Of a stretch of 64,000 nucleotides of DNA, positions 19,744 to 36,508 are shown piece after piece. The notes under the pieces were generated by a model that had not been told where the DNA came from, ran no database searches, and worked only from the letters and a program-made list of their open reading frames with translations. Numbering within the stretch: position 1 is the stretch's first letter; each line of letters begins with the position of its first letter. The position numbers and the translations under genes were made by a program. The stretch is from an uncultured Gammaproteobacteria bacterium (GTDB taxonomy: Bacteria; Patescibacteriota; Microgenomatia; JALYQM01): the NCBI GenBank assembly GCA_964403585.1, contig CAYOFQ010000001.1, forward strand, positions 76,456 through 140,455, in the 5' to 3' direction.

Positions 19744-20037
19744 ATGGTGATTCTACCCGAAATGCTCACATTCGATTGGGATGAAGGAAATAGAGAAAAA
19801 AACCAAATAAGTCATGGAATAATGTGGATAGACGCAGAGGAAGTATTCTTTAATAGACCACTAATGATTCATTCTGACGAGGGCCATTCAAAAGTTGAAG
19901 CACGTTACCAGGCACTTGGAAGGACCAATAAAGATCGAAAAGTATTTGTTGTATTTACAATAAGAAAAAACAAAATACGAATAATTTCTATCCGAGACAT
20001 GAATAAAAAAGAAAAGGCGGCCTATGAACAAAATTAA
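19744..20037 (+). CDS. brnT: BrnT-family type II toxin (DUF497 RNase)
   Basis: The stretch FDWDEGNREKNQ.HGI...EEVF...HSKVEARYQALGRT...VFVVFTIRKNKIRIISIRDMNKKE fits the BrnT pattern. The gene overlaps the antitoxin by 14 nt. Confidence 0.8.
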   Translation: MVILPEMLTFDWDEGNREKNQISHGIMWIDAEEVFFNRPLMIHSDEGHSKVEARYQALGRTNKDRKVFVVFTIRKNKIRIISIRDMNKKEKAAYEQN

Positions 20038-20344
20038 AAAGATACCAGCATTCAAATCAGAAGATGAAGAGCGAAAATTCTGGGATACACACGATTCTAC
20101 CGAATATGTGGACTGGAGCCGGGCTGAAGAAACAGTGTTCCCGAATCTACAGCCATCCACCCAAACCATATCTCTCCGACTACCCGAATCATTACTTGCA
20201 CGCATCAAAAACGAGGCAAATAAAAAAGATATTCCATACCAATCCTTAATGAAAATATATTTGAGTAAGGCCGTCGAAGAAGATCAAAGCTTACCACTTG
20301 CATCATACGGTATAATAAGAGACAAGGCGAAAAAGGGCCGCTAG
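20024..20344 (+). CDS. brnA: BrnA-family antitoxin (CopG/RHH-like)
   Basis: KFWDTHDSTEYVDW...ISLRLPESLLARIKNEANKKDIPYQSLMKIYL is the typical BrnA C-terminal RHH. Confidence 0.8.
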   Translation: MNKIKKIPAFKSEDEERKFWDTHDSTEYVDWSRAEETVFPNLQPSTQTISLRLPESLLARIKNEANKKDIPYQSLMKIYLSKAVEEDQSLPLASYGIIRDKAKKGR

Positions 20345-20407
20345 CTCATTTGGTAGAGCGCCTCCATGGCATGGAGGAGGTGAGGGGTTCGAGCCCCCTG
20401 CGGTCCA
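20335..20407 (+). tRNA. tRNA-Ala (anticodon GGC)
   Basis: A cloverleaf with acceptor stem gggccgc/gcggtcc includes the G3:U70 Ala identity pair. D arm gctc...gagc. Anticodon stem cctcc/ggagg with loop atGGCat. T arm agggg-ttcgagc-cccct. Discriminator A; CCA is not encoded. The 5' end overlaps the brnA stop codon. Confidence 0.85.
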
Positions 20408-20423
20408 CTAAACTGCTACAAGT

Positions 20424-22817
20424 TTGATGGCAAAGTTAGAAGTTGAAAAAATACCAATTCGCACCGAACCGGCCAGCGCTGAATATCTTCGGCGTATCCT
20501 CAGCTCGGGATTCGAAGGCCGGCGTGAACGTAAAAGATATGCCGACCAGGTCGTCTCTTACGCTACTACGGAAACAGTCACCGTTCAAGATACGCTCCAG
20601 GGCGTCTATTTAGGATATTATTTTATCGCTAACGGCGAAGCAGATATCGGCAGGCAAATTCTTGACCAAATTGAAGAGTATTTAAATCCCACGCTTCCTC
20701 CCGGAGGCGAAGGAAAGTTACGCGTAGTTCACAAATTTCTCCGGGGATACCACACCACCGCGCAGCAAGCCAGTGAATATATCGATCAATCAATAAAAGC
20801 AATAACTATCCTAGGGAAAAGAGATCGGCGCGAGACCAGTTTTCCGGGAATTGAAGAACTGATTGACCAGGCCTCTAAGGGTGCGTATCAAATGCGGCGG
20901 ATGGAAAATCCTGAAGCCATGCCCTTAACCACCTTGATACCGGAACGAGTTCGGGTCGTTCAAAAATCCGAAGAACCGTTAATCATTTTCAATAAACGTA
21001 TTCTGAGCCTGTCTGCCGATCTTGCCAACTCTGACGAGCTTGCTATTCTTGCCGGTATCCCGGATGAAGCCATGGAAGCAATCAGGAATATTGGACTGCC
21101 AGCAGATACCATTCTGCCAAATGCCTTACACGATAGATATAGCGGACTAACCTTTGCAGAAATAATCAGCCGTACAGATGTCTCTAATCTTGAAATACTA
21201 AAGTACATTGCCGCACTCCCCAAAGGTGATGTCATCTATGAATACATAGCTCAAACTGTTTTCTTTACTAACGTTATGTTTCCTGCCGATCGCAGTGTCG
21301 ACGAAGTCTTGGAGGATACCGAGTTCACGAAAAGAATAGTCAATTTCCAGCAATGGCTCATCAATAAATTATTCCTGCCCGTGTTCGAGCCGGACAAACT
21401 GGATCGCGAATTTGACCAGGCATTTATCGGGTTAATGCAGGGGAAATTTATCGGAACACAGTTTCAGATTGCTAATACGTTATTCGGAGCTGCTCTCTAT
21501 AATACTCAAACCCTGCTCAGACTTTACCCGGAATTAAGCATTGTCGATGTCATCGGCAGGCAGGAACTGCTAGCTGCACTGATGAAGCAAGCCGAAGCCC
21601 AAACCGCTGGAATACCGAGCATTTATACACACCAACTCATGCTCGATTTCTTTGATTCCCACTACCGGGATATCGCTGCAAGCTTTAATTCCAGATTTAA
21701 AAATACCAGATTTGTCCAAACACTATTATTCTCGGTAGCAGCTGCCCAGGAAGATCAATTTAAACAATCTTCCGAAGAATCAGTAGTAGATGAAATTATT
21801 ACCCAACTTGGACCGGAGTTTATTCGAGTCCTTAAAGATAGAGAAGTCCAGTTCCAGGAGACCATTGCAGATATCTGGAACGGCGTCAAAGAAACCGGAG
21901 TTGAAGTGGCATATTATCTGTATCCGGGTTCTTCATACGAAAAAATATTTGATCCGGATTCGGCGCTGGGTATTTTGGGATTTTCCGGAATCGAATTTAT
22001 TGCAGACACTGCCAACAATCGCCATATCCACTTTATCTTAAATTCCAAAAATAATAATCTCGCGCTGGTTGGAATTTTTGATGCCGAAACCGGTCTTGTT
22101 ATTCAATTGGGCGAAGAATTTTTCAAACACACGGAAATCAGTACATTCATACATTTAATTGCGACAACCTATTACAACGACTTTGTTAGCGAACGTCGTG
22201 AAGAACGTCAGGCAGTCATATCTGGACCGCGCAGATCAACTAAGGAACGTCAGAGTGGCACAACAGAAGCGACTGCAACCGATGAAGGTCAGTTGGAAAT
22301 TACGTTGGAAAAAGATTTGCCGCGTACTCATCGACCGCGCTATCGCCGTGAACCGCTTCCGGAAGGAGTAGTTGAACATCCGGCCGAACAGATCCAAGCA
22401 ACCGGACAAACTGAAAGACGCAGAATACTGTATCAGGAGCGCGAACAAAAAAGAGTTCCGCTTGGTCGAGCCGGAGCATACAGGGAAGCACTACAAGCAT
22501 ATTTGTTGGACCAATCGGAAACAAACCGTGAAGCCTTGCGCATTGCGCGGGAGAGGATCTATCAAATCAGCACGGACAAACGCGACAACGCCCCTCCACG
22601 CTTCAACGGCAACCTGGAAGTAGTTATCGATCCGGTAAACGGTGATGAAATATTTTTGGAAACCTGGCGGGTCAAACACACCATTCCCAAACTTACCGAA
22701 GAAGAACAGGCAGATATTCGTATCTTATACCGAAACCGCTTTAAAGGGACCGGGCATACTGCCAAACTGCTCGACGAACTAATAGGCCTGGTAATGGATG
22801 ATACGAAAAGGGAATAG
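20424..22817 (+). CDS. Hypothetical protein, 797 aa
   Basis: A long ORF with host-like codon usage and no motif I recognise. It lies directly downstream of the tRNA-Ala. Confidence 0.55.
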   Translation: MMAKLEVEKIPIRTEPASAEYLRRILSSGFEGRRERKRYADQVVSYATTETVTVQDTLQGVYLGYYFIANGEADIGRQILDQIEEYLNPTLPPGGEGKLRVVHKFLRGYHTTAQQASEYIDQSIKAITILGKRDRRETSFPGIEELIDQASKGAYQMRRMENPEAMPLTTLIPERVRVVQKSEEPLIIFNKRILSLSADLANSDELAILAGIPDEAMEAIRNIGLPADTILPNALHDRYSGLTFAEIISRTDVSNLEILKYIAALPKGDVIYEYIAQTVFFTNVMFPADRSVDEVLEDTEFTKRIVNFQQWLINKLFLPVFEPDKLDREFDQAFIGLMQGKFIGTQFQIANTLFGAALYNTQTLLRLYPELSIVDVIGRQELLAALMKQAEAQTAGIPSIYTHQLMLDFFDSHYRDIAASFNSRFKNTRFVQTLLFSVAAAQEDQFKQSSEESVVDEIITQLGPEFIRVLKDREVQFQETIADIWNGVKETGVEVAYYLYPGSSYEKIFDPDSALGILGFSGIEFIADTANNRHIHFILNSKNNNLALVGIFDAETGLVIQLGEEFFKHTEISTFIHLIATTYYNDFVSERREERQAVISGPRRSTKERQSGTTEATATDEGQLEITLEKDLPRTHRPRYRREPLPEGVVEHPAEQIQATGQTERRRILYQEREQKRVPLGRAGAYREALQAYLLDQSETNREALRIARERIYQISTDKRDNAPPRFNGNLEVVIDPVNGDEIFLETWRVKHTIPKLTEEEQADIRILYRNRFKGTGHTAKLLDELIGLVMDDTKRE

Positions 22818-22940
22818 GAAGGTGCACGAATTGTCCATTTTAAACTGAATAGTATGCTCAACGCATCTAGCAGTATAAAACTTACGAGTGCTATGCACCT
22901 TCCTTAAATGGTACGGGGCGGAGGAGAGGACCTAGTGGAA

Positions 22941-23237
22941 CTAGGTAAGTTGGAAGTAAGCCTGTATTGCACCTAATCCCAAATTCAGTACCAGAAACGC
23001 GAGGAATGACAAGGCGGTGGCGAGAATGAAAACGATGACCTTTAGCGGCCACCGGATAATCCATGTTAACCTTGGCCCTCCGGTCGCTTTGGCAGCCCGA
23101 TATCCGGCATACAGTGACGCCATGAATTCAAGCAGCCAAATCAGAAACCACGGGTCCCGCAGATTCGGTGCGTGTATCACACCATTTCTCCTTGTCCTCA
23201 CTCCGACCCCGATACTTATGCATGTATGTAAATGCAC
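22941..23237 (-). CDS. Putative small membrane protein (start uncertain)
   Basis: A minus-strand ORF of intermediate GC with two hydrophobic segments (WFLIWLLEF; IVFILATALSFLAFLVLNLGLGAI). The real start may be the internal Met (MASLYAGY...). Confidence 0.3.
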   Translation of the reverse strand: MHLHTCISIGVGVRTRRNGVIHAPNLRDPWFLIWLLEFMASLYAGYRAAKATGGPRLTWIIRWPLKVIVFILATALSFLAFLVLNLGLGAIQAYFQLT

Positions 23238-23520
23238 AAATATCAGAGTCTGAAAAAGAACAACACGAACATTTTAAAGATCGGATAAATAAGGAATAGT
23301 ATAAACAATTATACCATCAATAATTAAACAAAATTATATATTTTAAAAAGGAGATTTGGACAACAAGAGAGACAACAGCAAGGCAGTATACCAGAAAAGC
23401 AGAGAATATTCAACCTATAGTAACAGAAGAATAACAATATGGATAGAATAATTAAGAATTCTAGAAGGATTAAATAAGCTTAAATTTATAGATATTTCAA
23501 AAAATAAATAACCTATAGTA

Positions 23521-23549
23521 TTGACAAATAAGACAAAATATGGTATAGT
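23521..23549 (+). promoter_or_regulatory. Sigma70-type promoter with extended -10 (island unit 1)
   Basis: ttgaca at 23521-23526, a 17-nt spacer ending in tgg, and tatagt at 23544-23549. It is preceded by aaataacctatagtatt. Confidence 0.55.
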
Positions 23550-23952
23550 AGGCCCACTCTCCAACTCATTTTGAGCTCATTAACATCACAGTAGGGAGTC
23601 TACTGATCGGGAAAAGGTCACAAAATGAGGTTAAAATTAGCGCTCTGCGTTAGCTTTTGACACCATTCCAGCCCTTTATCGCGGTTAGTTTCTCCCTGCT
23701 AATACTCACAATTATGTGAGAGACAAATATGAATACCTTTGCCAACTTTATCTGGATGCAGACAAAGTGAGCTTGGACGGTTACTATTGTTGTTCTAATC
23801 ATTTAGAACCCTCTAAAGTTATCGCCTGAGCTCAACTTGTCTGCATTCAGAATGTAAGAAGGGGATGGTGTTTCGAACACCCGTATGCAGAATCCCTATC
23901 CGCCGCCCTCAACCGTTGTTGTTCAAACCGCTAAGTTGAAAGGAAACCGACA

Positions 23953-25011
23953 ATGGCACGCCAAATCATCATCGAGCTCTGGAATGGGACGAAAATCAAG
24001 CTGGAGCCAAAGGGCGATTTGAAGATGGAGGTGCAGTTTCCCTCGCCGATGTACCAATTGCTCCGGCCACTGGCCGAGATCACGATCATCGACGAGATCG
24101 ATCTGACCCCGCCCGTCACGCCCGAGAAGCCCGCGCCGACCCCCACCGCGACCAACACGCCGGACGAGACCGACACCGCGCTTCGCCGAAACTCGCGGCT
24201 GCAGGCCATTGCGACCCACGCCATCGGCGTGCTGGTCGGCTTGATCATCGGCCTGTTGCTCGCCGGTTTCATCTACCGCGACCACATCCACCCCGAGACC
24301 TTCCTGCAGCATGTGCATATGGAGCAGTGGCTTGCCACTCGCTACAGCGCCACGCTGCATGCCGTTTCGGACAAGCAGGTCGAGGTCGACAACGCCAACA
24401 TCCGCGCCGGCGCTCTCGAGACCGACAAGTTGTGGCTGCAGCAGCAGCTCGACGCCGAGCAGACCGCCAACATGAAGCTGATCGACGCGCTCACTATCGC
24501 TGCCGCCGGCACGGGCAACACCTACAACACCTACAACAACCTGCCCGGCTACCAGCAGCAGTATGACCCCACCAGCGGCCAGCTGACCTACAACGGGCCG
24601 AACAACGACTCGTTGCGTATTCTTGGTGACATGCTGGACTCGCTGAACCTCAACGGCAATGGCGCCAACTCCCAGAACTCGGCCGCGGCCATCAACAACT
24701 CGATCTGGCTGGGGAGCTACGACAGTGGTGCCTGGAACTACGCCGGCATTGGCGAGATCCGCGTGCTGAGCACACCCGCCAACGGCGCGCCCGGCTATTT
24801 CACCTACGAGTTGCCCGTCGCCAGCGACAGCCAGGCGGTTCACTATCTCAACCCTAACGCGCTCCGCGACGCGCAGACCAACCAGCCCGTCACGGTGCCC
24901 GGCCGCTACAAGGTCGTCAACCGCAGCCTCTACACCGGCGCGGCCACTGATGGCGAAGCCACGCAATTGGACAACGTCAGCCAGCTGTGGCTCGAGTACA
25001 TCGGCCAGTAG
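23953..25011 (+). CDS. GC-rich island ORF a: bitopic membrane protein with PT-rich linker and Q/N/G-rich C-terminal domain
   Basis: ATG with AAGGAAA 8 nt upstream. Third codon positions are strongly G/C-biased, which fits + strand coding. One TM (AIGVLVGLIIGLLLAGFIY). The long minus-strand ORF 23923-25164 is the usual GC-rich antisense artefact. Confidence 0.6.
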   Translation: MARQIIIELWNGTKIKLEPKGDLKMEVQFPSPMYQLLRPLAEITIIDEIDLTPPVTPEKPAPTPTATNTPDETDTALRRNSRLQAIATHAIGVLVGLIIGLLLAGFIYRDHIHPETFLQHVHMEQWLATRYSATLHAVSDKQVEVDNANIRAGALETDKLWLQQQLDAEQTANMKLIDALTIAAAGTGNTYNTYNNLPGYQQQYDPTSGQLTYNGPNNDSLRILGDMLDSLNLNGNGANSQNSAAAINNSIWLGSYDSGAWNYAGIGEIRVLSTPANGAPGYFTYELPVASDSQAVHYLNPNALRDAQTNQPVTVPGRYKVVNRSLYTGAATDGEATQLDNVSQLWLEYIGQ

Positions 25012-25253
25012 GCCTTTCTTTTTTCTCTCACAACGCCATGCCTTAGTGCATGTCGCCGCCTGTGCCTTAGGGTACGGCGTTGTGAGTTTGACATATACCG
25101 TCGAGCAGAGAGAATTTGGCCGACGGGGGTCAGAGGAGTGCCGAAGGCACGAAGCGGTGCGCATGCATCATTTCGTTCACCTACAGCACTCCTCGTCAAC
25201 CACCCCCGCCGGCCTTTTCTCGTTTTAAAGGTAAAAATTAATATCCTATAATA

Positions 25254-25282
25254 TTGCCAAATAGTACAAAAAGTGATACAAT
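25254..25282 (+). promoter_or_regulatory. Sigma70-type promoter (island unit 2)
   Basis: ttgcca at 25254-25259, a 17-nt spacer, and tacaat at 25277-25282. It is preceded by atcctataatatt. Confidence 0.5.
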
Positions 25283-25606
25283 TCCCCCGCAAACGCGTCA
25301 ACGATCCAAGTTCCTTAAAATCGGGTAGTGGAGAAGCGTGAGGATTGGATTCTTCGGCTAAAGTCCGTGCTTAAGCATGGATAGAATCTGAAACAATCGA
25401 ATCTCTCTAAATTCTCTACTACCGCCAATAGTAATTTCCAATCCTGACTTCCATTATCCCTATCAGAAGATACAGATAGTTATTTATAGATATCTTTTGA
25501 TACGGATAATGGAATACAAAGGAAAACTAATGAAACAAGCTCAGGCACCGTAGACGGCCGTTTGTTTAGATCGCTGAAACTGAAAGAAAGCAAAGGAGAA
25601 ACAACT

Positions 25607-26365
25607 GTGAATGATCCAACTCCAATCGAGCAGGCCCGACAACTAATCGGCGAACAACGCTACGACGAGGCACTGCAAATCCTGCGTGAACTAACCGAGG
25701 CCGAGCCTACCAACGTGGAGGCCTGGCTGCTTTCGGCTCAAGTTCTCGCCGAACCATCGACGAAGAAGTACTGCTACAAGAAAGTGCTCGAGATCGACCC
25801 GACCAACGAGACCGCGCTCAAAGGCCTGCAGGCCCTGCCTCCGGACGAAGCCGAGGTCGTATTCGATGGCCAACCGGCCCTTGATTCAAGAGGCCGCGTC
25901 CCCGGCCGTGTTGGTGAGACTGATCAGGTTCTGAGCGATGTGTACGCCGATGCTGGTGTCGCCACAGGGCAAGGTGCTCCAAGGCGCCGTCGGCTTCGCT
26001 GGCTTATCCCAGCAGTTCTTGTGCTGCTCCTGCTAGTAGTTCTGGCGCTCGCCCTTGGCAGCCGCTCCGGCACACCGCCTGCAGCGTCACCTACGCCACC
26101 ACCCGCCACCGCCCAGCCGCAGGCAACCGCGCCCGCACAACCGACCGCCGCGACCGAATCGACGGCTGCACCAGAGCCGACGGCCCCGCCGCCGACCAAC
26201 GCACCGCAGCCTACCGCTGTGCCGACTTCCGCCCCGACCACCGCGCCGACTAGCCCGCCACCCACCGCCGCGCCCACAAACTCCGGCGCCCTGCGCCCGG
26301 GCGACACGGTCATTTCGACCGCGACGCCAGCTACCAGGCCAGGCGTTCTGCGCCCCGGCGGCTAG
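25607..26365 (+). CDS. GC-rich island ORF b: TPR-like N-domain, TM helix, Pro/Ala/Thr-rich region ending in LRPG repeats
   Basis: The probable start is GTG at 25607, with AAAGGAG 7 nt upstream; the ORF track extends it to 25562. One TM (WLIPAVLVLLLLVVLALALG). The C-terminus is ...GALRPGDTVISTATPATRPGVLRPGG*. Confidence 0.55.
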   Translation: MNDPTPIEQARQLIGEQRYDEALQILRELTEAEPTNVEAWLLSAQVLAEPSTKKYCYKKVLEIDPTNETALKGLQALPPDEAEVVFDGQPALDSRGRVPGRVGETDQVLSDVYADAGVATGQGAPRRRRLRWLIPAVLVLLLLVVLALALGSRSGTPPAASPTPPPATAQPQATAPAQPTAATESTAAPEPTAPPPTNAPQPTAVPTSAPTTAPTSPPPTAAPTNSGALRPGDTVISTATPATRPGVLRPGG

Positions 26366-26593
26366 CGCTTCGGACACTCATGGTGTGATCACACCATCTG
26401 CCAGGAGTGGTTTTGGATCCTCCAAGATAAACCCGGTGTGGGGTTTGTCTTTAGTGGAAATTACTACGAACCGTACGCCTCTATGGCGGCATCATCAGCA
26501 AGCACGCCTTCAGCAATGAGGGAAAGTGAGTGTAAAAGATGTAGGTTCAGGCGGTAGTAGTTTTCAGTAAATAACCTATAATATTTATTTAAA

Positions 26594-26621
26594 GGTTGAT
26601 AATTACTTAAAATCTGGTATA
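26594..26621 (+). promoter_or_regulatory. Sigma70-type promoter with extended -10 (island unit 3)
   Basis: ttgata at 26594-26599, a 16-nt spacer ending in tgg, and tataat at 26616-26621. It is preceded by aaataacctataatatt. Confidence 0.5.
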
Positions 26622-27094
26622 ATTGCAGGGCAATATTTAGTCCTATAGTACTGTTACTACAAATGTGAATATGAACTATTCGTATTCAGACTTGTACTAA
26701 TAAGTACGGCACTTTAAAAACTGCATAGACAGTAGTGGGAAACGATGGGGATTGGACACGACCTCAGTCAACCATGCATAATTGTGTGCATTCGCGCCTG
26801 ATGAAACGGTCAAGTCTCCGTGTTTTTCCCACTACCCTTAATTGAAAAAGAAGTTCTTCCAAATAAACTATCCAATAATCCTATGAGGTGTTAAGCATAA
26901 ATTTAGCACTTGATAGGATTATTGTGATAGCAAAGCAAGGAGGATTATCTGATCACCTGCACGAGCCGCAAGGCGACGATGCAGAAAGCGGAGAGAGACC
27001 GCCCGAAGAACTGTGAGCGCAAGCTTACAGAGATGGTGGAAACCCATCACGAAACATACGTCGATCATCAGTTGTACAACTAGGAGAAGTAACA

Positions 27095-28171
27095 GTGAAA
27101 CGCTTACCAAACCTGCGGTACCTTTTGAGCATCGCGATGCTCGTGCTGGCCGCCCTCGCCGCCGCCCCGGCCGCCGCCGCGCCCGCCACCTGTGCCAAAC
27201 CGATCAACGGCAAGGGCGAAATTCACGGCAAGACCTATCAGTCGGACTGCATCAACGACACCACCGACCCGTTCGACCTAGCGGTCAGCGGCAATTTCGG
27301 CAAGGCCGATACTGTGTTGCTCCAGCTCCGCTCACCAAGCCAGCTGAGCTTCCAGCTCGACCCCAAAGACCCGGCAGCCATTGCCGTAGTGCCGAACGCC
27401 TGGTCGGATCCCATCATGTGGGACAAGTCGTATAACGACCACGCCATCCGCATCCTGCCGTACGGCGCCGTCGAGATTTCGGCGACGTCGACGCTGGCTC
27501 TGTGGTACATCACCCGCCAACCCGCTCAGGTCGTCGCACAGCCGACACCCACCAACACCGCCGGCCAGCTCGTGGCCCAGTCGCAGGTAGAGAACCAAAC
27601 CATCGATATCGCCGACGCGACCGCGCTGGCGAAGATCAAGCTGCACGATGGAGATGAGCTGGAGTGGAGCTTCGCAAAGTCGGCTACGCCGATCACGCTG
27701 ACGCTCTCGTCGGACAAGCCCTCGTACCCATTCTCGCTGATCCACGCCTCGAGCGGCACCGCCCAGTTTCAGTCGAAGATCTGGAGCAAGTCGAAAGGCC
27801 ACGAGATTCGCACGCAGGTGCCATCTGACCACGGCACTTTGAACAGCGGCCCTGCTGTGATCTCGATTTCCGTGGAGGCACCCGCCGGCACCACCGACCA
27901 GCTGAATCTGAAGATCACCCGCGCCGCGCAGCCCGCTACCTCCGCTGGCTCGAACGCCACGGTGCCAAACGGCGACTTGCCAAACACCGGCTGGGCCGAC
28001 TTGGGCGGCTTGATGCAGCTCGGCGACTCCGCTACCAACCAGACCACCGGCATGAACGCTTTCATCACCTTCCCCCTCAGCGCTACCCAGCGCTGGGTCG
28101 TCGGTGGCCTCGCCGCCTTGCTCGCCATCGGCCTCTTGGCCCGCCGCCGGCGCGCCTCCAAGGCACGCTAG
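27095..28171 (+). CDS. GC-rich island ORF c: secreted surface protein with LPNTG motif and C-terminal TM plus Arg-rich tail
   Basis: GTG start with AGGAG 8 nt upstream. Signal peptide. The C-terminal region has DLPNTG, then about 38 aa, then the hydrophobic stretch VVGGLAALLAIGLLA and RRRRASKAR. This is a sortase-signal-like layout with an atypically long gap. Confidence 0.6.
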   Translation: MKRLPNLRYLLSIAMLVLAALAAAPAAAAPATCAKPINGKGEIHGKTYQSDCINDTTDPFDLAVSGNFGKADTVLLQLRSPSQLSFQLDPKDPAAIAVVPNAWSDPIMWDKSYNDHAIRILPYGAVEISATSTLALWYITRQPAQVVAQPTPTNTAGQLVAQSQVENQTIDIADATALAKIKLHDGDELEWSFAKSATPITLTLSSDKPSYPFSLIHASSGTAQFQSKIWSKSKGHEIRTQVPSDHGTLNSGPAVISISVEAPAGTTDQLNLKITRAAQPATSAGSNATVPNGDLPNTGWADLGGLMQLGDSATNQTTGMNAFITFPLSATQRWVVGGLAALLAIGLLARRRRASKAR

Positions 28172-28185
28172 CACATCGGCCCTTC

Positions 28186-28260
28186 GGGGGAGAGCGCGCA
28201 TCATGCGCCGCGCGCTCTCCTCTCGGAGAACAGGACTTTCTTTTTCTATTTTTGTTTTTG
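28186..28260 (+). terminator. Strong GC-rich rho-independent terminator closing the GC-rich block
   Basis: ggagagcgcgc...gcgcgctctcc hairpin followed by a T-rich run (ctttctttttctatttttgtttttg). Confidence 0.6.
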
Positions 28261-28386
28261 TCTCGCTTCGCCTAGCCGGTGAAGAAATTGCCAGTGATGG
28301 TGATGTGAGATGAAGATAAAGAAAGAAAAGGGTAGTGGGTTCTGTTGAAAATCGGAGTAATGTACTCGGGTTTTGAATAGAATCTT

Positions 28387-31300
28387 ATGAACGAATCAGC
28401 AATGCACTTCCGGGGAATGGAATTTAATAATCCCTTCCCAAACCGCGATCTCGAACAACTCACCAAAAAGATGGAGGAGTTGCGCGAACGTGCCGGTCAC
28501 TTCTCGCTGTCAGTTGGCGAAAGATTAGCAAACGTCAGAGAGCAATTGCAAACATATTCGCAAATCGCCCAGGAAAAAATTATCCAAACCGACCATAACT
28601 TAACCATGCTTGCGCATATCCACCGCGAAAAAATTATTGACGGTGCCGAATTTGCAGCCGCCCATCCGGTTGAAGCCGGAAAAATAGTTATCAAAAAAGG
28701 CTGGATTTATGCCGCCGGCGCCGGAGCGCGCTATGCACTAATTGCTACGGGCACTGCCATGGGCTACATGCTCTATCCGGTTGCTGCATTTGGTACCGCA
28801 CTTTCATCAATGGTTGTAGGAGGGTACAAAGATTGGCAAACCATGCACAGTAAAAACGGTGCCCGCGAGCTATACAACAAATACGTTGGCAAAGACGCGC
28901 TCCGTGCCGAAACCTATGACGATGATCAAAAGACCGGTTGGTGGAACGCCGTTAAAAAATTTACCGGCAGATATTCCATGTCTGTCAAAGAAGGCTATCG
29001 CCGCGCCTATGGCGCCTATACGTACAAAGAAGTTATCAACCAAATGGTTGAAGATACCTCAGAAGAAAATTTTAGCAAATATGCTGAAAGAATTGCTAAT
29101 GCCACACACGGTGAAATAGATTACCGTGCTTTGCACAGATTACAGGCAGAATTAAGAGATAAACTTATTGACGCCAGTTACGGTGTTGCCGTTGCCATGA
29201 ACAACCACACACGCAAAGATGGTCAGGCAGTTATTAAAAAATATTTTTCAGTCCTGCAACAAACAGCTGAATATACCAAAGTCGACACAGCGGAATTCAT
29301 GAGTCAAGTTGCCGAACAGAAAAACAAAAGACTGGAGTCCTCAGCTAAAAAAGGTTTTGCCGCAACATTATTATCCCGCGGCAGCTGGTCAATGGCCCGC
29401 TTCGCTTCCGGGGGCGCACTACTCGGACGTTTCACCCCCAAGGCCGAAGCCCACGACGCCATCTTTGGGAATCAACACCAACCGGAAACACCAAAGGTGC
29501 AAATTGGTCACGCTGTTCGTGAAGACCAATACGTACCTAAAACAGAAACCGCTCCACAACCAAAACCATCATTTAAGACATCATCTGTACGAACAGATAT
29601 CCGGTCTGAACTACGAGCAGAAAATGCTGCATTTGTGCATACAGTTCCAGAACCAAAAGTAGCCGCTGTACCAAGGATAGAAATGAAACCGATTGAAATA
29701 TCTGTTGAGCAAAACCACGGTCTGTTCATATCTCTTAAAAACAGTGGTTGGGGAGATATAAGTGATAGTGACAGTGGTGCACGTTTTATGGCTGAAGTGG
29801 CACCTCTCTTTCGTGGACATGGATTATCTGAAGAACAATACCAAGACCTAATGCGAGTAGTCTATGAAAATAAAGATATCACCGCTGAGGATTTATGGAA
29901 AAAATTCAAATGGTTTGATAAAGCTTTCATGGTCCATGCAGGAAAATTCAATATTAATATTCCTCAAGTGGTTGATGACCCAACCATTAAAGTAAATTAT
30001 GATTTCACGGCTCAAACAGTTCGTCGAGAAGGAGTTCCTAAAGTATTATTCAGCGTACTACTTAAGGACGATCCACCTCCTAAACCTGAAGGAGGAGTAT
30101 TGCACCCGGGCGGATCTGGTTTGGGAACGAATCATGCCGAAGGTACAGTATTACGTCCAGGAGGACGGCCAAATATTCCAACAACCGAGAATGTACCCGT
30201 GCGACCATTGCCAGACGCGAGTGATCGTCTGATGGATAATTCTCCGAATACTACAGTGCCAGAACGCAAACCTAACGTTCTACACCCAGGTGGAGGGCAG
30301 CCAACTACACCTGCGCAAAGTGAAGCATTACGACCAGGTCAATCAACTATCAATCAAGAGGATGGAGCTGCTAATACCGAAACATTAAAGCCGGGATCAA
30401 CAGTAATAAATACTCCTACCGAAGCTCGAATGCATCCGGGTAGTACAATCTTTAAGGATAAACCCACATCATCAGCTACTGTCACATTGCGGCCTGGAGC
30501 TACTACTATTAACGATCAAGTCGAACAACAAGCCGCAGCCCAACCACTTCCCGCAGCTGAAATTCCCAGAGCTAAAGAATTCAACTTCAACCAGGAATTC
30601 TTTGTCAGCTCCGCCAATAAAATAATTGAAATCACCAAAGAAAACGTAAAGCGCTGGTTGCACTTACCACTCTCCATTAATGAACTTCCTGCAGATCCAA
30701 ACTGGGATGAAACAATTGTTTCAGAATACATGGGCCGCACAATTATATTTGTACACTCCGCCCGCAAAGATGGTATGGATTTACCTGGCAACTTCTTCCG
30801 TGAAGCAGCCGAGCTTGGACAGAGTTCCTTCGGATATGGGCAGGACCAGGTCCAGGAGTACTTAAAACAAGCGATCAGTGAAAATCGAACAGCTTTATTT
30901 ACCGGCCAAGACGGTTCTCAACAGACGTTCCGCTTAACGAATGCCTTCTACCAGCCGTATCGCGAAGTGGTGCAAGAAGATCTCTGGGGAAATAAGTACG
31001 ATAACAACCTTTCCGATTTAGCCCAATACGTCAGCCAGACAAATAAAGACGACGTGATCATAGTTTTCTGTGGACGTTCACATGTTGAAGCAATCCGCAA
31101 AGGAATCGAAATCATGCAGGAAGTAAAAAGTACCTTACCAGCAGAACAAAAGGATGTCGCGGAAACAGTAATAATCACACTGCAAAATAGTAAAGCAACT
31201 GGCCAATCCTACACTAATGCGGTGCAAAACATGTTCAGCATATTAAAAGCAAGCAACCCTAAAGAATATGAAAAGCTCTTACTGCTTTATACCGGTGAAC

Positions 31301-31392
31301 CTTACAATAAAGATCCAGAAGCATTAAAGCAAGCCAATCCCTACATGTTCTCCGGAGCCCGTTACGTCCTCGGCTTATCTCCGGTAAAATAA
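28387..31392 (+). CDS. Hypothetical large protein (1001 aa) with central L(R/H)PG repeat region
   Basis: Host-like AT-rich codon usage. An N-terminal region carries a hydrophobic patch. A central repeat at aa ~560-700 runs VLHPGGSG...VLRPGGRP...VLHPGGGQ...ALRPGQSTIN...LKPGSTVIN...MHPGSTIF...LRPGATTIN. Confidence 0.6.
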   Translation: MNESAMHFRGMEFNNPFPNRDLEQLTKKMEELRERAGHFSLSVGERLANVREQLQTYSQIAQEKIIQTDHNLTMLAHIHREKIIDGAEFAAAHPVEAGKIVIKKGWIYAAGAGARYALIATGTAMGYMLYPVAAFGTALSSMVVGGYKDWQTMHSKNGARELYNKYVGKDALRAETYDDDQKTGWWNAVKKFTGRYSMSVKEGYRRAYGAYTYKEVINQMVEDTSEENFSKYAERIANATHGEIDYRALHRLQAELRDKLIDASYGVAVAMNNHTRKDGQAVIKKYFSVLQQTAEYTKVDTAEFMSQVAEQKNKRLESSAKKGFAATLLSRGSWSMARFASGGALLGRFTPKAEAHDAIFGNQHQPETPKVQIGHAVREDQYVPKTETAPQPKPSFKTSSVRTDIRSELRAENAAFVHTVPEPKVAAVPRIEMKPIEISVEQNHGLFISLKNSGWGDISDSDSGARFMAEVAPLFRGHGLSEEQYQDLMRVVYENKDITAEDLWKKFKWFDKAFMVHAGKFNINIPQVVDDPTIKVNYDFTAQTVRREGVPKVLFSVLLKDDPPPKPEGGVLHPGGSGLGTNHAEGTVLRPGGRPNIPTTENVPVRPLPDASDRLMDNSPNTTVPERKPNVLHPGGGQPTTPAQSEALRPGQSTINQEDGAANTETLKPGSTVINTPTEARMHPGSTIFKDKPTSSATVTLRPGATTINDQVEQQAAAQPLPAAEIPRAKEFNFNQEFFVSSANKIIEITKENVKRWLHLPLSINELPADPNWDETIVSEYMGRTIIFVHSARKDGMDLPGNFFREAAELGQSSFGYGQDQVQEYLKQAISENRTALFTGQDGSQQTFRLTNAFYQPYREVVQEDLWGNKYDNNLSDLAQYVSQTNKDDVIIVFCGRSHVEAIRKGIEIMQEVKSTLPAEQKDVAETVIITLQNSKATGQSYTNAVQNMFSILKASNPKEYEKLLLLYTGEPYNKDPEALKQANPYMFSGARYVLGLSPVK

Positions 31393-31438
31393 GCACTACC
31401 ACCTTGCCAAGTGCTTTCAAGTACGAGATAACAGGAGA

Positions 31439-32704
31439 ATGGAACTCATTGTCGATCTGCATCTGCATTCTCACTATTCCCGCGCCACCAGTAAAGAATC
31501 CAATTTAGAAGGATTGTATAAATGGGGAAAAATCAAAGGCATTAATATAATTGGCACCGGAGATTTTACGCATCCGTTGTGGTTTGCCGAATTAATCAAC
31601 AAACTTGAACCGGCCGAAGACGGCCTCTATGCCCTCCGCGAAGAGTACGCCAAACCAATAGACATGATATTGCCGGAGGTACTAAGAAATAATGTGATAC
31701 GATTTGTAGCAACTGTTGAAATCAGTAATATCTATTCCAAACAGGGTAAAGTGCGCAAATTACACAACCTTCTAATAGTACCAAATTTAGAAGTTGCCGC
31801 CTCTATCAATAAACAATTGGATCGCCTTGGAAATCTAAAAGCCGATGGTCGACCTATCCTGGGATTGGATAGCAAGTTACTGTTAAAAATAACCCTGGAG
31901 TCACATCCCGAATCACTTTTCGTCCCCGCGCATATTTGGACGCCGTGGTTTGGCATGTTTGGCTCTAAGTCAGGATTCGACAAAATAACCGATGCCTTCG
32001 AAGAATTAACACCGCACATCCACGCCATTGAAACCGGCCTCTCATCCGACCCGCATATGAACTGGCAGGTGTCTCAACTGGATACCTTGACAGTTATTTC
32101 TAACTCCGATGCTCATTCGCCGCAAAAGCTGGGCAGAGAAGCCAATGTGATTAATACCGCCCTGTCTTACACAGACATTATCGGCGGGATACGCACCAAC
32201 GACCAACGATTCATCGGTACTATCGAATTCTTTCCTGAAGAAGGGAAGTATCATTACGACGGACACCGCGCTTGTAAAGTTGTCTTTACACCCGAACAAA
32301 CCAAAGCTCATCACGGAATGTGCCCTGTTTGTCATAAACCAGTGACGGTGGGTGTAGAGTATCGCGTTATGGAACTCAGCGATCGCACTCACGGATATGT
32401 ACCTGCTAGTAATAAGCAAGTCGAATATATCATTCCACTTATTGAGATTATCGCTGAATTAAACAATGTTAAAAGTACCGCTTCCAAAAAAGTACAGGAT
32501 CAGTATCAACAGGTATATTCAACTCTCGGCGATGAATTTAGTATCCTTCGTTCGCTGCCGGTAACTTCAATCGATCAGGCCGGATTTACTAAACTCGCCG
32601 AGGTAATAAAAAAAATGCGCCGGCGCGAGGTACGTATCGCCCCGGGGTATGACGGAGTATACGGCACGGTAAAACTAATGCCATCACTACCGGTGCAAAA
32701 ATAG
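31439..32704 (+). CDS. PHP-domain nuclease, endonuclease Q-like
   Basis: An N-terminal PHP motif (DLHLHSHYSRATS) and a zinc-finger-like CPVCHK in the C-terminal half, at ~420 aa, match the EndoQ architecture. The assignment is from memory. Confidence 0.55.
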   Translation: MELIVDLHLHSHYSRATSKESNLEGLYKWGKIKGINIIGTGDFTHPLWFAELINKLEPAEDGLYALREEYAKPIDMILPEVLRNNVIRFVATVEISNIYSKQGKVRKLHNLLIVPNLEVAASINKQLDRLGNLKADGRPILGLDSKLLLKITLESHPESLFVPAHIWTPWFGMFGSKSGFDKITDAFEELTPHIHAIETGLSSDPHMNWQVSQLDTLTVISNSDAHSPQKLGREANVINTALSYTDIIGGIRTNDQRFIGTIEFFPEEGKYHYDGHRACKVVFTPEQTKAHHGMCPVCHKPVTVGVEYRVMELSDRTHGYVPASNKQVEYIIPLIEIIAELNNVKSTASKKVQDQYQQVYSTLGDEFSILRSLPVTSIDQAGFTKLAEVIKKMRRREVRIAPGYDGVYGTVKLMPSLPVQK

Positions 32705-32962
32705 CTACTGAGTCTGAAAAGCATTGGCACAATTAAGGAGACTTCGCTAATTATCCAATGAAAACTTCTCCAATATAACAATAATAGTAATTATAAAACT
32801 GGTTGACATTCAACAATGATAGCAAAGTATATAAAAAATAATACAGTGTTAATAGTAATAGAACCATTGTGATATATTTATAAATACCTAAAATAATACA
32901 AAATGCATCAAAAAATTCTACTTGACAATCACCCATAGCGTGATCTACTGTTAACAGTACCT

Positions 32963-33715
32963 ATGAAGTATCCAAAAGCCACGACCGCTTTTATGTTTGC
33001 TGCCGCGATGTTTGCCACCGGAGCATCGGTAACGTTTGTTAATGCCGAGAGTGGTCCCGGTGGTGGGAAACGAAGCCCTGATTCAAGTGGTTCGGTTAGA
33101 CCATCAAAGAGTCCCTCCTTTAAACCATTTGATAAACACTCATCTCCTTCCGGAGAATCAAATAAAGGACGTGGTGGTCATAGTCAGCGCATCGCTACTG
33201 ATTCGGATAAAATAAAGGATAAACTCGCAACCCGGTCAGGTGAACGTAAGGCCAAACTTACAAATTTGAGCAATAACCTGATCAGAAGATTTACCAACGT
33301 AACTGAGCGCCAGGAAAATATTTTGAATCGCGCTAACACCCGTATTGCTTCGATGTCGGCTACAGGCTCCAACGTTGCCGATCTGAAAGCAAGATCAGCC
33401 AGTATTTCAGCTATGATCGCCAAACAAAAGACCTCCATAGCGGCACTAAAAACAACATTAGCAGCAATTTCTACATCAAATTCTTCTGGAGATTCCATTG
33501 GTAAGGCCATATCCGATGTAGTTAAACAGGTCACAGCAACCCATAAAGCCTTGCACGATCTTGTTAAGGCTATGGGCGGCAAGGGCAATTCCTCCCACTC
33601 TCCGGCAGTTCGACCAACAAAAAGCCCGAAAGCTTCCGCCAGCGTTAAACCTTCTACGACTCCGGTAAGTTCCGCTGAACCGTCCGACGAGCCGCTTTCC
33701 GAAGATGAGGAATAA
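32963..33715 (+). CDS. Secreted Ser/Lys-rich coiled-coil protein
   Basis: Signal peptide (MKYPKATTAFMFAAAMFATGASVTFVNA). The rest is low-complexity, and the C-terminus is acidic. Confidence 0.5.
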   Translation: MKYPKATTAFMFAAAMFATGASVTFVNAESGPGGGKRSPDSSGSVRPSKSPSFKPFDKHSSPSGESNKGRGGHSQRIATDSDKIKDKLATRSGERKAKLTNLSNNLIRRFTNVTERQENILNRANTRIASMSATGSNVADLKARSASISAMIAKQKTSIAALKTTLAAISTSNSSGDSIGKAISDVVKQVTATHKALHDLVKAMGGKGNSSHSPAVRPTKSPKASASVKPSTTPVSSAEPSDEPLSEDEE

Positions 33716-33754
33716 CACCCGGGGTTTTAAAAGCACTGTGATATAATTAATACC

Positions 33755-36508
33755 ATGAAACCCTATAATCATAAAGAAATCGAACCAAAATGGTCACAAG
33801 TCTGGAAGGAAAACAAAACCTACCGCACTCCGGATACCAGTGACAAACCCAAAGATTACACGATTGTCATGTTCCCGTACCCGTCCGGGGATCTCCACAT
33901 CGGGCACTGGTATAATTTCGCTCCCACCGACGTCTACGCTCGTTTTAAACGCATGTCCGGTAAAAATGTAATGACCACTATTGGTTTTGATGCTTTTGGT
34001 CTGCCGGCCGAAGGTGCAGCCATCAAACGGGGAATTCATCCGTCCGACTGGACACATTCCAATATCCAGTCAATGTTAAAACAGCTGGAAAAAATGGGAC
34101 CGTCGTATGATTGGGAACGAACCGTTGTTACCTGCGATCCCGATTATTATAAATGGACACAGTGGTGTTTCTTAAAGCTGTACGAAAAAGGGTTAGCCTA
34201 CAAAACCAAAGCCGCAGTTAACTGGTGTCCGGTAGATAAATCCGTTCTGGCGAACGAACAGGCTGAAGGCGGAGTCTGCTGGCGTTGTGGCTCACAAGTC
34301 GAACAAAAAATGATCGAACAGTGGTTCTTCAAAATCACCGAGTATGCCGAGCGCTTACTCGAGGGCTTGGAAACCCTGGACTGGCCGGAACGAATTAAAT
34401 TAATGCAATATAATTGGATTGGCAAAAGTGAAGGCGCTGAAATTACCTTTAAAATTGTTACCGAAGGACAGGATACCCCCAAGCCTTTAACAGTATTCAC
34501 CACCCGTCCTGATACATTATTTGGTGCAACCTTCTTGGTAGTTGCACCGGAGCATCCGCAGCTGGATGATCTCACAACAGAAGAACATAAACGCGAAGTG
34601 CATAGTTATCGCGAACAAACTGTCCATAAGTCTGAATTAGAGCGCATTGCGGATAATAAAAAGAAGACGGGTACCTTTACCGGATCATATGCAATCCATC
34701 CGTTTACCAATCGCAAGTTGCCGGTTTGGACCGCCGATTTTATCTTAGCTAATTACGGCACCGGAGCTATTATGGCCGTACCGGGACACGACCAGCGCGA
34801 CTATGACTTTGCCAAGCAGTACGATTTACCTATCAAATTTATTCTCCAGCCGGCCGAAGTTTCCGCAGTTATTGTTGAAAAAAGCGTGGATAAACAGCTG
34901 TTCGATGATTTGACCCAACTGGGAGGATTCACCGTCTCGGATTTTAGTTTGTGGGGCAAGATGGTCAATTTCGGCAGAGACAAAATTGAGACTTTCCGTA
35001 AATTGGTCCAAACACATCTCCAGGAAGGACCGCACGTCGTACATACTGACGGAGTTATTCGCATGGCCATATTTAAAGATAAAGTGGTGGCCTACAATAC
35101 CGAATCCCGATCCTGGGAAGAAGCTATTGCCTATGGCAAAGAAAAGAAAATCATCCCGGAAAATCTCGACTTCACCTTTCCGGAAGAAGGCTTCACTAAA
35201 CCGTTTACCGATACAGAGAATGCCTACTTGATCGATTCTGAAAATTTCTCCGGACTTTCCAGTGCTGACGCTAAAAAATTAATCGTCAAAGTATTGGAAA
35301 AAGAAAATCAGGGTACCAGAACCATAAAATATAAATTACGGGACTGGTTAGTATCCAGACAGCGCTATTGGGGCGCTCCAATTCCAATTATTTATTGCGA
35401 ACACTGTGGCACTGTACCGGTGCCGGAAAAAGATCTCCCGGTAGTCTTGCCATACGAGGTGGATTACACTCCGCAGGAAGTATCACCACTCGGATCGGCT
35501 CCGGATTTCGTGAATGTTAAGTGTCCAAAATGTGGCGCAGATGCGAAACGTGACACCGATACTATGGACACCTTCGTAGACAGCTCCTGGTACTTCTTGC
35601 GCTATCCCACACCCCATGATGATACTCGGCCGTTTGGTTCTGCTAAATTGGGCGGATCGGACACCGTAAACCAGTGGGCACCGGTAGATAAATACGTTGG
35701 TGGAGCGGAACACGCGGTATTACACTTGCTCTATTCCCGTTTCTTCACCAAAGTCTTTGCGGATGAAGGGTATTTGAATTTTCAGGAACCATTCCAGAGC
35801 TTGTTTAATCAGGGAATTATCCTGGGGCCGGATCATCAGAAAATGTCCAAGTCCAAAGGTAATGTCATTAATCCTGACGAGTTAGTCGAGCATTATGGAT
35901 GCGATGCTGTGCGTATGTATCTCTGTTTCCTGGGCCCATACGATCAGGGAGGACCATGGAACCCTGCCGGTATTGAGGGGGTTTCCCGCTTTATGCGTAA
36001 ATTCTACGGTGTTTTAACTGGAGATCACGCGACAACTGCGGACAATAATCTTGACGTCGCTATCAATAAATTAATTAAGAAGGTTACCAATGATCTCCCG
36101 CAAATGAAATTTAATACGTCGGTAGCGGCCTTCATGGAATTCATTAATACCGTTGGCGAGCAAAAACTAACCATCGAACAGAAGAAGTCAGTGATCAAGC
36201 TCATTGCACCATTTGCGCCATTCTTGTCTGAAGAACTGTGGAATGAATATGCTCCGGGACAGGGAAGTGTCCACCATCAATCCTGGCCAACCTTTGACCC
36301 GGCAATGCTCATCGAATCTGATGTTGAAATTGTCATTCAGGTAAATGGCAAAGTCCGGGACAGATTTGTCGTGCCTTTAAATACCGACAAGGATACCGTC
36401 GTCAGCCAGGCCTTGAGTCGTGAGATAGTGGTAAAGTTTACAGAGGGCAAACAACCCGATTCACTCATCTTTGTGCCGAACAAATTACTTAACATTGTCA
36501 TCAAATAA
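33755..36508 (+). CDS. leuS: Leucine--tRNA ligase
   Basis: HIGH motif (PYPSGDLHIGHWYNF), KMSKS motif (KMSKSKGN), and a CP1 editing domain. Confidence 0.95.
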   Translation: MKPYNHKEIEPKWSQVWKENKTYRTPDTSDKPKDYTIVMFPYPSGDLHIGHWYNFAPTDVYARFKRMSGKNVMTTIGFDAFGLPAEGAAIKRGIHPSDWTHSNIQSMLKQLEKMGPSYDWERTVVTCDPDYYKWTQWCFLKLYEKGLAYKTKAAVNWCPVDKSVLANEQAEGGVCWRCGSQVEQKMIEQWFFKITEYAERLLEGLETLDWPERIKLMQYNWIGKSEGAEITFKIVTEGQDTPKPLTVFTTRPDTLFGATFLVVAPEHPQLDDLTTEEHKREVHSYREQTVHKSELERIADNKKKTGTFTGSYAIHPFTNRKLPVWTADFILANYGTGAIMAVPGHDQRDYDFAKQYDLPIKFILQPAEVSAVIVEKSVDKQLFDDLTQLGGFTVSDFSLWGKMVNFGRDKIETFRKLVQTHLQEGPHVVHTDGVIRMAIFKDKVVAYNTESRSWEEAIAYGKEKKIIPENLDFTFPEEGFTKPFTDTENAYLIDSENFSGLSSADAKKLIVKVLEKENQGTRTIKYKLRDWLVSRQRYWGAPIPIIYCEHCGTVPVPEKDLPVVLPYEVDYTPQEVSPLGSAPDFVNVKCPKCGADAKRDTDTMDTFVDSSWYFLRYPTPHDDTRPFGSAKLGGSDTVNQWAPVDKYVGGAEHAVLHLLYSRFFTKVFADEGYLNFQEPFQSLFNQGIILGPDHQKMSKSKGNVINPDELVEHYGCDAVRMYLCFLGPYDQGGPWNPAGIEGVSRFMRKFYGVLTGDHATTADNNLDVAINKLIKKVTNDLPQMKFNTSVAAFMEFINTVGEQKLTIEQKKSVIKLIAPFAPFLSEELWNEYAPGQGSVHHQSWPTFDPAMLIESDVEIVIQVNGKVRDRFVVPLNTDKDTVVSQALSREIVVKFTEGKQPDSLIFVPNKLLNIVIK

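Follow-up and report, generated by a model that had tools for sequence, protein, structure and literature searches.

Base composition is usually taken as a property of the whole genome, and local departures from it are taken as imports. Can a bacterium instead keep single genes far above the composition of its own genome? The question is raised by three neighboring open reading frames (ORF1, ORF2, and ORF3) between 23.2 and 28.3 kb of a 64-kb stretch of contig CAYOFQ010000001.1, referred to here as the window, a bacterial chromosome segment with housekeeping genes such as those for RadA, Rho, TGT, Obg, LeuRS, ArgRS, ComEC, and trigger factor. The locus looks like a counter-example to the usual view: high guanine plus cytosine (GC) content starts and stops at ORF edges three times in 5 kb, among what appear to be native regulatory RNAs, and an orthologue has kept it through synonymous turnover. 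To the explanation that this GC content is native, confined to the ORFs, maintained, and combined with regulatory leaders we give a probability of roughly 0.5. The best reading of the sequence is that ORF1–ORF3 and the gene that follows them, ORF4, would be a Saccharimonadia-specific cluster of fast-evolving envelope genes.

23953-25011, + strand: ORF1, 352 amino acids (aa); N-terminal segment, PT (proline–threonine) linker, one transmembrane helix, coiled coil, beta-rich C-terminal domain; orphan
25607-26365, + strand: ORF2, 252 aa; GTG start 8 nt after AAGGAG; TPR, RRRR then transmembrane helix, PA/PT-rich tail
27095-28171, + strand: ORF3, 358 aa; signal peptide, two beta-sandwich domains, LPNTG, transmembrane helix, basic tail RRRRASKAR
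28387-31392, + strand: ORF4, 1001 aa; normal GC, with 0.39 at third codon positions (GC3); repeated h-[RHK]-P-G motifs; membrane segments near the N-terminus

GC-Rich DNA Coincides With Three Coding Sequences

The overall GC content of the window is 0.454, and 1-kb windows outside 24-28 kb reach at most 0.516. GC content is 0.63 in ORF1 (0.586, 0.416, and 0.884 at the first, second, and third codon positions; GC1, GC2, and GC3), 0.66 in ORF2 (0.731, 0.593, and 0.664), and 0.64 in ORF3 (0.579, 0.507, and 0.844), whereas GC3 of the 33 other ORFs of the window lies between 0.35 and 0.53. An earlier sequence-only reading had described three ORFs strongly biased to G and C, and the sliding-window GC and GC3 analysis agrees with it (GC3 0.88, 0.66, and 0.84). 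In windows of 200 nt, GC content is 0.25-0.40 at 23200-23900, 0.61-0.69 in ORF1, 0.37-0.43 at 25200-25600, 0.61-0.78 in ORF2, 0.33-0.42 at 26500-27000, 0.59-0.70 in ORF3, and 0.43 from 28200 onwards. The sub-kilobase alternation of AT- and GC-rich DNA that had also been pointed out is real, values of 0.25-0.43 and of 0.59-0.78 alternating three times over 23.2-28.3 kb, and the three GC-rich stretches are exactly ORF1, ORF2, and ORF3, each with its downstream hairpins.

Coding on the + strand, as previously proposed, is indicated by the order of GC among codon positions (GC1 above GC2, with GC3 highest in ORF1 and ORF3), and also by ribosome-binding sites, signals for export and anchoring, and the existence of ORF3 homologues; in the antisense frames of the three ORFs, GC1 is below GC2. 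Long antisense ORFs of 413 and 290 aa lie opposite ORF1 and ORF3 and are by-products of the high GC content. In one Logan assembly (L083) antisense ORFs were annotated instead of ORF1 and ORF3, at 1235-2476 and 4644-5516, which correspond to 23923-25164 and 27332-28204 of the window on the minus strand, while the other Logan assembly called the sense ORFs. High-GC ORFs inside a low-GC genome are an annotation hazard.

Codon usage in the block is of a generic high-GC type (GGC 0.81, CGC 0.66, ATC 0.82, AAG 0.77, and GAG 0.82), with the codon preference for Lys and Glu reversed relative to the rest of the genome, and amino-acid composition is shifted to G, A, R, and P. GC skew of the coding strand is negative (-0.05 to -0.37), C being above G. 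The sole tRNA gene of the window, tRNA-Ala(GGC) at 20335-20408, is found 3.5 kb upstream of the block. Its codon, GCC, is the one used most in the GC-rich ORFs, in which Ala makes up 10-15% of residues and GCC 55% of Ala codons.

The Composition Changes Recur in Separate Assemblies

Logan contigs from the runs SRR16481186 and SRR16481187 are 100% identical to the window, spanning 20352-35011 and 22689-36159, and both cover all six AT/GC junctions; the identical block sequence is also present in an NCBI contig. Each of the three GC-rich segments coincides exactly with an ORF that has a ribosome-binding site, a start codon, and a terminator. The Logan contig L082, from a different sample (ERR8482628), repeats the AT/GC/AT layout, with an orthologue of ORF3 as its GC-rich part. 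An assembly chimera, with high-GC reads of another organism stitched into a Saccharibacteria contig, would account for the abrupt composition changes and nothing else, and is effectively refuted by the identity over the six junctions in two Logan runs and the NCBI contig and by the layout of L082. The earlier argument against a simple chimera is upheld by these separate-run assemblies.

High GC Content Persists in a Diverged Orthologue of ORF3

Of the three proteins, the large-database searches covered ORF1 and ORF3. Both matched only themselves among 5.8 billion protein clusters, and ORF3 had just two homologues in a full HMMER scan of 1.84 billion representatives, at 37% (P0003) and 31% (P0004) identity. 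P0003 is encoded on the 1.4-kb contig L082 by an ORF with a GC content of 0.67 and a GC3 of 0.85, between flanks with a GC content of 0.39-0.48. These flanks share about 75-80% identity with the window and contain an identical stretch of 28 nt that carries a leader motif described below (domain A). L082 shares the core of the ORF3 terminator, keeps the proximal hairpins at 26988-27052 of the ORF3 leader, and has the inner stem of a long hairpin with two compensatory and seven one-sided changes.

The coding parts of ORF3 and P0003 were not alignable by blastn, the proteins being 37% identical. At residues conserved between them, 59% of codons are identical as against 47% expected at synonymous saturation, and among 121 third-position sites 19 differ by a C<->G exchange and about 24 by an exchange between strong and weak bases. 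Third positions have turned over widely, yet both genes stand at a GC3 of 0.84-0.85. Under a two-state model (equilibrium GC3 of 0.45, ~0.5 substitutions per site per lineage), about 60% of the excess GC3 would be expected to be lost; this loss has not occurred, and the composition is therefore apparently being maintained. This argues for high GC content as a long-standing, maintained property and not a recent import. An import that has not yet been ameliorated is at odds with a high GC3 that survived near-saturating synonymous divergence.

The gene for P0004, on a JGI contig of 121 kb, is separated by 239 nt from a homologue of ORF4 (P0006, 1017 aa) that follows it and by 595 nt from the gene before it, a spacing that resembles that of the window. 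A distant relative has therefore kept both the ORF3-ORF4 pair and its wide spacing. The PHP-domain gene beside the block (31439-32704) has its best relatives in Saccharibacteria/Saccharimonadia metagenome-assembled genomes (MAGs), at 62-68% identity, which assigns the window to this phylum; none of the MAG loci matched by this gene was syntenic with the block, and none had a comparable GC jump. The ORF4 family profile gave no match in the metagenome scan and the ORF3 family none in viral contigs, and no description of the locus or the SRA runs was found in the literature. The actinobacterial donor proposed earlier found no support here, as ORF1 and ORF3 returned only self matches among the clusters and the two relatives of ORF3 lie in Saccharibacteria-like contexts.

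A 2935-bp Logan contig (L084, SRR8893623) encodes a PHP-domain protein that clusters at 90% identity with the product of 31439-32704; the contig stops short of the block. As it comes from a third, unrelated run, a close relative of the organism exists in other samples.

Each GC-Rich ORF Has Its Own Predicted Promoter and Structured Leader

Predicted promoters, leaders, and 3' hairpins of the block are listed below; fold z-scores are relative to shuffled sequence, which all leaders and 3' UTRs surpass by far in stability, and UTR stands for untranslated region.

23414-23422, + strand: extra copy of CCTATAGTA near promoter 1
23512-23549, + strand: promoter 1, upstream motif CCTATAGTATT fused to TTGACA-17-(TG)-TATAGT (23521-23549)
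23556-23952, + strand: leader 1, ~400 nt, AT-rich; domain-A-like hairpin 23590-23700, long hairpin B 23751-23851; z = -7.0; inverted repeat I1
25028-25228, + strand: ORF1 3' UTR, GC-rich; strong hairpins 25028-25085 and 25118-25215, then a U tract; z = -9.2
25245-25282, + strand: promoter 2, CCTATAATATT fused to TTGCCA-17-(TG)-TACAAT (25254-25282)
25289-25606, + strand: leader 2, ~320 nt; domain A 25322-25425, hairpin B 25449-25514; z = -6.8
26366-26570, + strand: ORF2 3' UTR, hairpins ~26366-26409, 26426-26449, and 26454-26566; z = -5.6
26575-26652, + strand: promoter 3, CCTATAATATT at 26575 and TTGATA-16-(TG)-TATAAT at 26596-26623
26630-27094, + strand: leader 3, ~465 nt; domain A 26730-26836, hairpin B 26873-26924, proximal hairpins 26988-27052; z = -10.2
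28182-28260, + strand: ORF3 terminator, GC-rich hairpin 28182-28228 and T-rich tract; core identical in L082
28236-28385, + strand: ORF4 leader, long hairpin 28236-28335 and second hairpin 28337-28385, its 3' arm abutting the ATG

The promoter scan gave promoters 1, 2, and 3 as the best sigma70-type matches of the region, all with a TG-extended -10 box; these are exactly the sites that had been named as near-consensus promoters from the sequence. The common upstream motif was recovered as well: CCTATARTAYT occurs five times in the window against 0.2 expected, four times in the block and once at 50375. A second copy near promoter 3, CCTATAGTACT at 26642, lies just within predicted transcript 3. 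The wider promoter context CTATAR-N-ATTG-N-CAAATA has four matches in the window against 0.12 expected, namely promoters 1 and 2, a site at 4090 upstream of a DUF11 gene, and an intragenic site with two mismatches at 14343.

The DUF11 surface-protein gene (4875-7658) has normal GC and is preceded by CTATAGGATTGACAAATA, the promoter context of promoters 1 and 2. The ~740 nt 5' of this gene fold at z = -12.5 (window 4090-4875) and may be a leader. Promoter context and long structured upstream region together look like the organism's usual format for envelope genes, and, judged from sequence, the promoters and leaders of the block look native to the genome. The claim that each gene of the block has its own native-looking promoter and leader is thus strengthened by the same context at a normal-GC gene. 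The further idea that coding sequences were placed behind a cassette becomes doubtful, both because the normal-GC DUF11 gene has this promoter context with an even longer structured leader and because ORF2 shares an LRPG-type motif with ORF4. Also upstream of the DUF11 gene are a near-perfect long hairpin at ~4577-4632 and, close to the ORF, a second near-consensus promoter, TTGACG-17-TATAAT at ~4786-4814; with this second promoter the distal transcript could be a separate non-coding RNA.

Leaders 1-3 have a common plan, in which a ~100-nt hairpin (domain A) is followed by long hairpin B and then by smaller proximal hairpins. In leaders 2 and 3 domain A is closed by the stem GUAGUGGrrAA...UUyyCyACUAC, with compensatory changes; the two copies are 76% identical and have 26 pairs, six of them altered on both sides, so that by sequence they are clearly homologous. 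A covariance model built from both scores 113 bits in leader 2 and 117 bits in leader 3. The corresponding hairpin of leader 1 is analogous but diverged. The conserved long-range stems reported earlier are therefore real, supported by the compensatory changes of leaders 2 and 3 and the analogous hairpin in leader 1. The 5' half of the domain-A motif, GTAGTGG-N7-TG-RRR-AT-Y-GGA, has three sites in the 64 kb, in leaders 2, 3, and 4 (in the ORF4 leader at 28332-28356, with its second hairpin), and no further site in the 64 kb even at three mismatches.

In the minimum free energy fold of leader 2, UUCCUU (25311-25316) pairs with the Shine-Dalgarno sequence AAGGAG (25593-25598). In leader 3, nine bases near the 5' end of the transcript (26650-26658) form an exact complement of 27088-27096, a stretch that overlaps the GTG start. 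At the other end of the units, the hairpins and U tract of the ORF1 3' UTR look like a terminator in the predicted fold, and the strong GC-rich terminator previously noted after ORF3 is present as the hairpin 28182-28228 with its T-rich tract, kept in L082.

Among known RNA families, only a tRNA passed the gathering threshold of Rfam 15 in the whole window, and at permissive E-values 23000-28500 gave only sub-threshold matches to miRNA and snoRNA models. The 24-nt pattern of leader 4 had no match in the metagenome scan. A degenerate form of the domain-A motif gave eight matches in viral contigs, none with the closing arm, and these were judged to be chance.

The Products Have Features of Envelope Proteins

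All three proteins had been called envelope proteins, and their features agree with this: a PT linker and transmembrane helix in ORF1, TPR and a transmembrane helix in ORF2, and a signal peptide with LPNTG in ORF3. The N-terminus of ORF3 is MKRLPNLRYLLSIAMLVLAALAAAPAAAAPA and its C-terminus LPNTG ... VVGGLAALLAIGLLARRRRASKAR. ORF3 thereby resembles LPXTG proteins anchored by sortase, having a signal peptide, a C-terminal LPNTG, a hydrophobic stretch, and a positively charged tail, and this layout is kept in the homologues P0003 and P0004 as LPRTG and LPNTA. It differs from them in having no recognized adhesin, pilin, or Ig-fold Pfam domain, and no sortase domain was found among the scanned ORFs of the window.

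ORF1–3 belong to no described family: Pfam, PHROGs, and NCBIfam scans of the block proteins gave only TPR in ORF2 and low-complexity matches, and sequence searches of the PDB with ORF1, the ORF3 family, and the ORF4 family gave no meaningful match. The AlphaFold model of ORF3 (predicted local distance difference test score, pLDDT, of 59) has two beta-sandwich domains, and Foldseek comparison of the model with the PDB returned only generic beta-sandwich matches, with template modeling (TM) scores of 0.12-0.20; the model of ORF1 was unusable (pLDDT 38).

ORF2 and ORF4 have a motif in common. The C-terminal tail of ORF2 ends ALRPGDTVI...VLRPGG, and the motif h-[RHK]-P-G-(x)-T-x-I or VL[RH]PGG occurs in at least seven copies in ORF4 (30050-30500) and two at the C-terminus of ORF2 (26270-26362). 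Distant homologues of ORF4 have a VRVxPxG variant at the same place. The LRPG-type motif of the two proteins may be a common binding or processing motif.

Maintained Composition as a Proposed Explanation, and Its Alternatives

In the explanation that we favor, native GC content maintained within the ORFs, each of ORF1, ORF2, and ORF3 is predicted to be a separate single-gene transcription unit. ORF4, which by eye has no convincing promoter of its own, may be read through from ORF3 across the short structured spacer. The leaders would be cis-acting mRNA elements: their 5' stem-loops, together with the strong 3' hairpins, may stabilize the message, and in leaders 2 and 3 a closing helix from 5' to 3' would cover the Shine-Dalgarno/start region and so gate translation. 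The products would be abundant, fast-evolving envelope proteins, and GC would be held high by some force that bears on the coding sequence and terminator within each transcript. Selection on mRNA or codon choice is, we infer, the most likely cause, with GC-biased gene conversion as the main alternative candidate. Rho prefers untranslated RNA that is rich in C and poor in G, as the coding strand of the block is, and AU-rich sites for RNases are fewer in GC-rich RNA; both are candidate reasons for selection on the mRNA. Long residence over import is further indicated by the promoter context and structured upstream region at the normal-GC DUF11 gene, and by the ALRPGxxxI/VLRPGG motif of ORF2, which is repeated in the genome's own ORF4 and replaced by VRVxPxG in distant homologues.

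Several points weigh against this explanation. Promoters, transcription starts, and folds of the block are predictions throughout. The comparative argument comes from one related locus with DNA (L082, 1.4 kb), and P0004 and P0006 were compared as proteins and gene positions, not as DNA. In the window the covariance model of domain A found only leaders 2 and 3, leaders 1 and 4 giving no score, and the module is therefore strictly common to two leaders and only loosely to leaders 1 and 4. The other envelope genes of the window (DUF11, ORF4, and a giant gene with Kelch repeats) have normal GC3, so an envelope role alone does not account for the composition. Generic high-GC codon usage with reversed Lys and Glu preference is the expected look of an import, and we know of no precedent for selection at the mRNA level that raises GC3 40 points above the genome value.

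Horizontal transfer would explain just these codon properties: three coding sequences with their terminators would have come from one or several high-GC donors (candidates being a phage, an actinobacterial host, or a relative in the Saccharimonadia with high GC), replaced or been inserted behind native promoter-leader units, and not yet drifted to the composition of the recipient. A GC3 of 0.84-0.88, the shift to G, A, R, and P, the tRNA-Ala gene 3.5 kb upstream, and the existence of high-GC relatives, some Saccharimonadia MAGs reaching 0.55-0.60 GC, all speak for it. We nevertheless consider transfer improbable, if the strongest of the rivals. No donor-side homologue appeared among the 5.8 or 1.84 billion proteins, in phage records (tblastn of ORF1), or in plasmid records (blastn of the 5.2-kb block), and the only relatives of ORF3 lie in contexts like that of the window. 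The GC edges match three separate ORFs with native paralogous leaders between them, the window yielded neither an integrase, recombinase, or reverse transcriptase nor an att-like copy of the tRNA end, GC3 did not change during near-saturating synonymous divergence, and ORF2 carries a motif specific to the ORF4 of this lineage. High GC could also be a by-product of recombination, if diversifying surface proteins frequently exchanged alleles and GC-biased gene conversion raised their GC3. The 37% amino-acid identity of ORF3 and P0003 between flanks 75-80% identical is a pattern of allele replacement, and the vls cassettes of Borrelia, with ~49% GC in a genome of ~28.6% GC, offer a parallel (PMC11499132). 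The window contains no silent or paralogous cassettes, however, the sign of the GC skew is opposite to that of vls, C being above G on the coding strand, there is one G-quadruplex-type (G4-type) motif and no enrichment of G runs, and the flanks where crossovers would resolve stay AT-rich. Reported effects of GC-biased conversion in bacteria amount to a few GC3 points and not ~40, and we rate this explanation as quite unlikely.

It is very unlikely that the composition is directed at a host, the ORFs being tuned to translation in a high-GC host after delivery of mRNA or DNA, or the proteins mimicking envelope proteins of the host. Saccharibacteria are described as epibionts of Actinobacteria (10.1101/2023.03.20.533568), and Actinobacteria-like high-GC codons are limited to ORFs for envelope proteins, one of them with an LPXTG-type signal. 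Transfer machinery or a transfer signal was not in evidence, however, promoters and ribosome-binding sites are native, and export signals are ordinary ones for the producing cell; mimicry by acquisition is also opposed by the searches, which found no host homologues for ORF1 and ORF3.

If the composition is indeed native and maintained, detection of transfer by composition would mislabel such genes, a gene-specific force on composition would act in a reduced genome of the candidate phyla radiation, and the surface proteins with their leader RNAs would be candidates for how Saccharibacteria present themselves to hosts. A bolder form of the favored explanation, to which we would give little credence, is that selection on the message, and not on the protein, keeps envelope genes ~40 GC3 points above the genome, and that these genes are driven by previously undescribed long paralogous 5' leader riboregulators. 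The composition could then belong to the control logic, for example if a C-rich, G-poor coding strand made transcription dependent on Rho and translation or the mRNA resistant to RNases, or could be tuned to a high-GC host.

Comparison With Known Systems

For composition, the nearest parallel by analogy would be the vls system of Borrelia. Its cassettes have ~49% GC in a ~28.6% GC genome, attributed to strong selective pressure, with a marked strand skew and elevated GC conserved across strains despite divergence (PMC11499132). As in vls (~20 points), coding DNA for surface proteins is held above genome GC in the block. The vls type has one expression site and an array of silent cassettes ~90% identical to it. 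The three genes of the block are mutually unrelated, and each has a separate promoter and leader. When ORF1-3 were compared with the 64-kb window by blastn and tblastx, all matches were to themselves or to low-complexity sequence; gene conversion from silent cassettes was dropped, with no copies in the window. The coding strand is C-rich in the block and G-rich in vls, and G motifs are not enriched, as the minus strand has the single G4-type motif and G runs number 4.1 per kb, as against 7.0 per kb in the whole window. A G-quadruplex idea was dropped for this lack of enrichment.

Like a genomic island, ORF1-3 have GC content and codon usage sharply atypical for the recipient genome, and a tRNA gene is nearby. 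Unlike in an island, the atypical composition is broken three times by native AT-rich regulatory DNA, and three of four features of horizontally acquired islands (donor homologues, a mobility signature, and continuous, decaying composition) are missing from the block. Pfam scans of all window ORFs of at least 150 aa found no integrase, recombinase, or reverse transcriptase. An island integrated at the tRNA was rejected, as the window has no second copy of the tRNA-Ala 3' end, and so was a plasmid origin, the block DNA having no match in plasmid records.

The tandem unrelated ORFs, separated by structured, partly conserved repeats, also recall an integron array. Integron cassettes are normally promoterless, end in attC sites, and lie beside an intI integrase. 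The block does not fit this type: every ORF has a promoter to itself, the repeats precede the ORFs and are transcribed as leaders, and the 64 kb contain no recognized integrase; no dedicated attC model was run.

Genes of the S-layer type, such as slpA of Lactobacillus, combine a strong promoter, a long, structured, stabilizing 5' UTR, and a strong terminator. On predictions, the block has this format: single-gene units with near-consensus promoters, long stem-loop leaders, and strong 3' hairpins. Its leaders differ in being three to four times longer than the classic ones and in carrying a paralogous hairpin module, and the classic cases have no shift in ORF composition. S-layer domains were not detected in the family scans.

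Other Observations in the Window

The fifth copy of the upstream motif, CCTATAATACT at 50375, lies upstream of an ORF of 2957 aa (window 50375-59592) with an odd combination of an N-terminal transposase-like helix-turn-helix (HTH_Tnp_1, HTH_28), a GT2 glycosyltransferase domain, and many Kelch repeats. The ~4.4 kb after this giant gene (59600-64000) lack long ORFs, with fragments of just 50-150 aa on either strand, and have no Rfam RNA gene; they may be decayed coding sequence. The nucleoside diphosphate kinase domain is matched by each of two overlapping ORFs, 46907-47506 and 47391-48161, which could reflect a duplication or a frameshift within one gene. Two small adjacent ORFs (19746-20310) directly preceding the tRNA gene have, by eye from their translation, the look of a candidate toxin-antitoxin pair.

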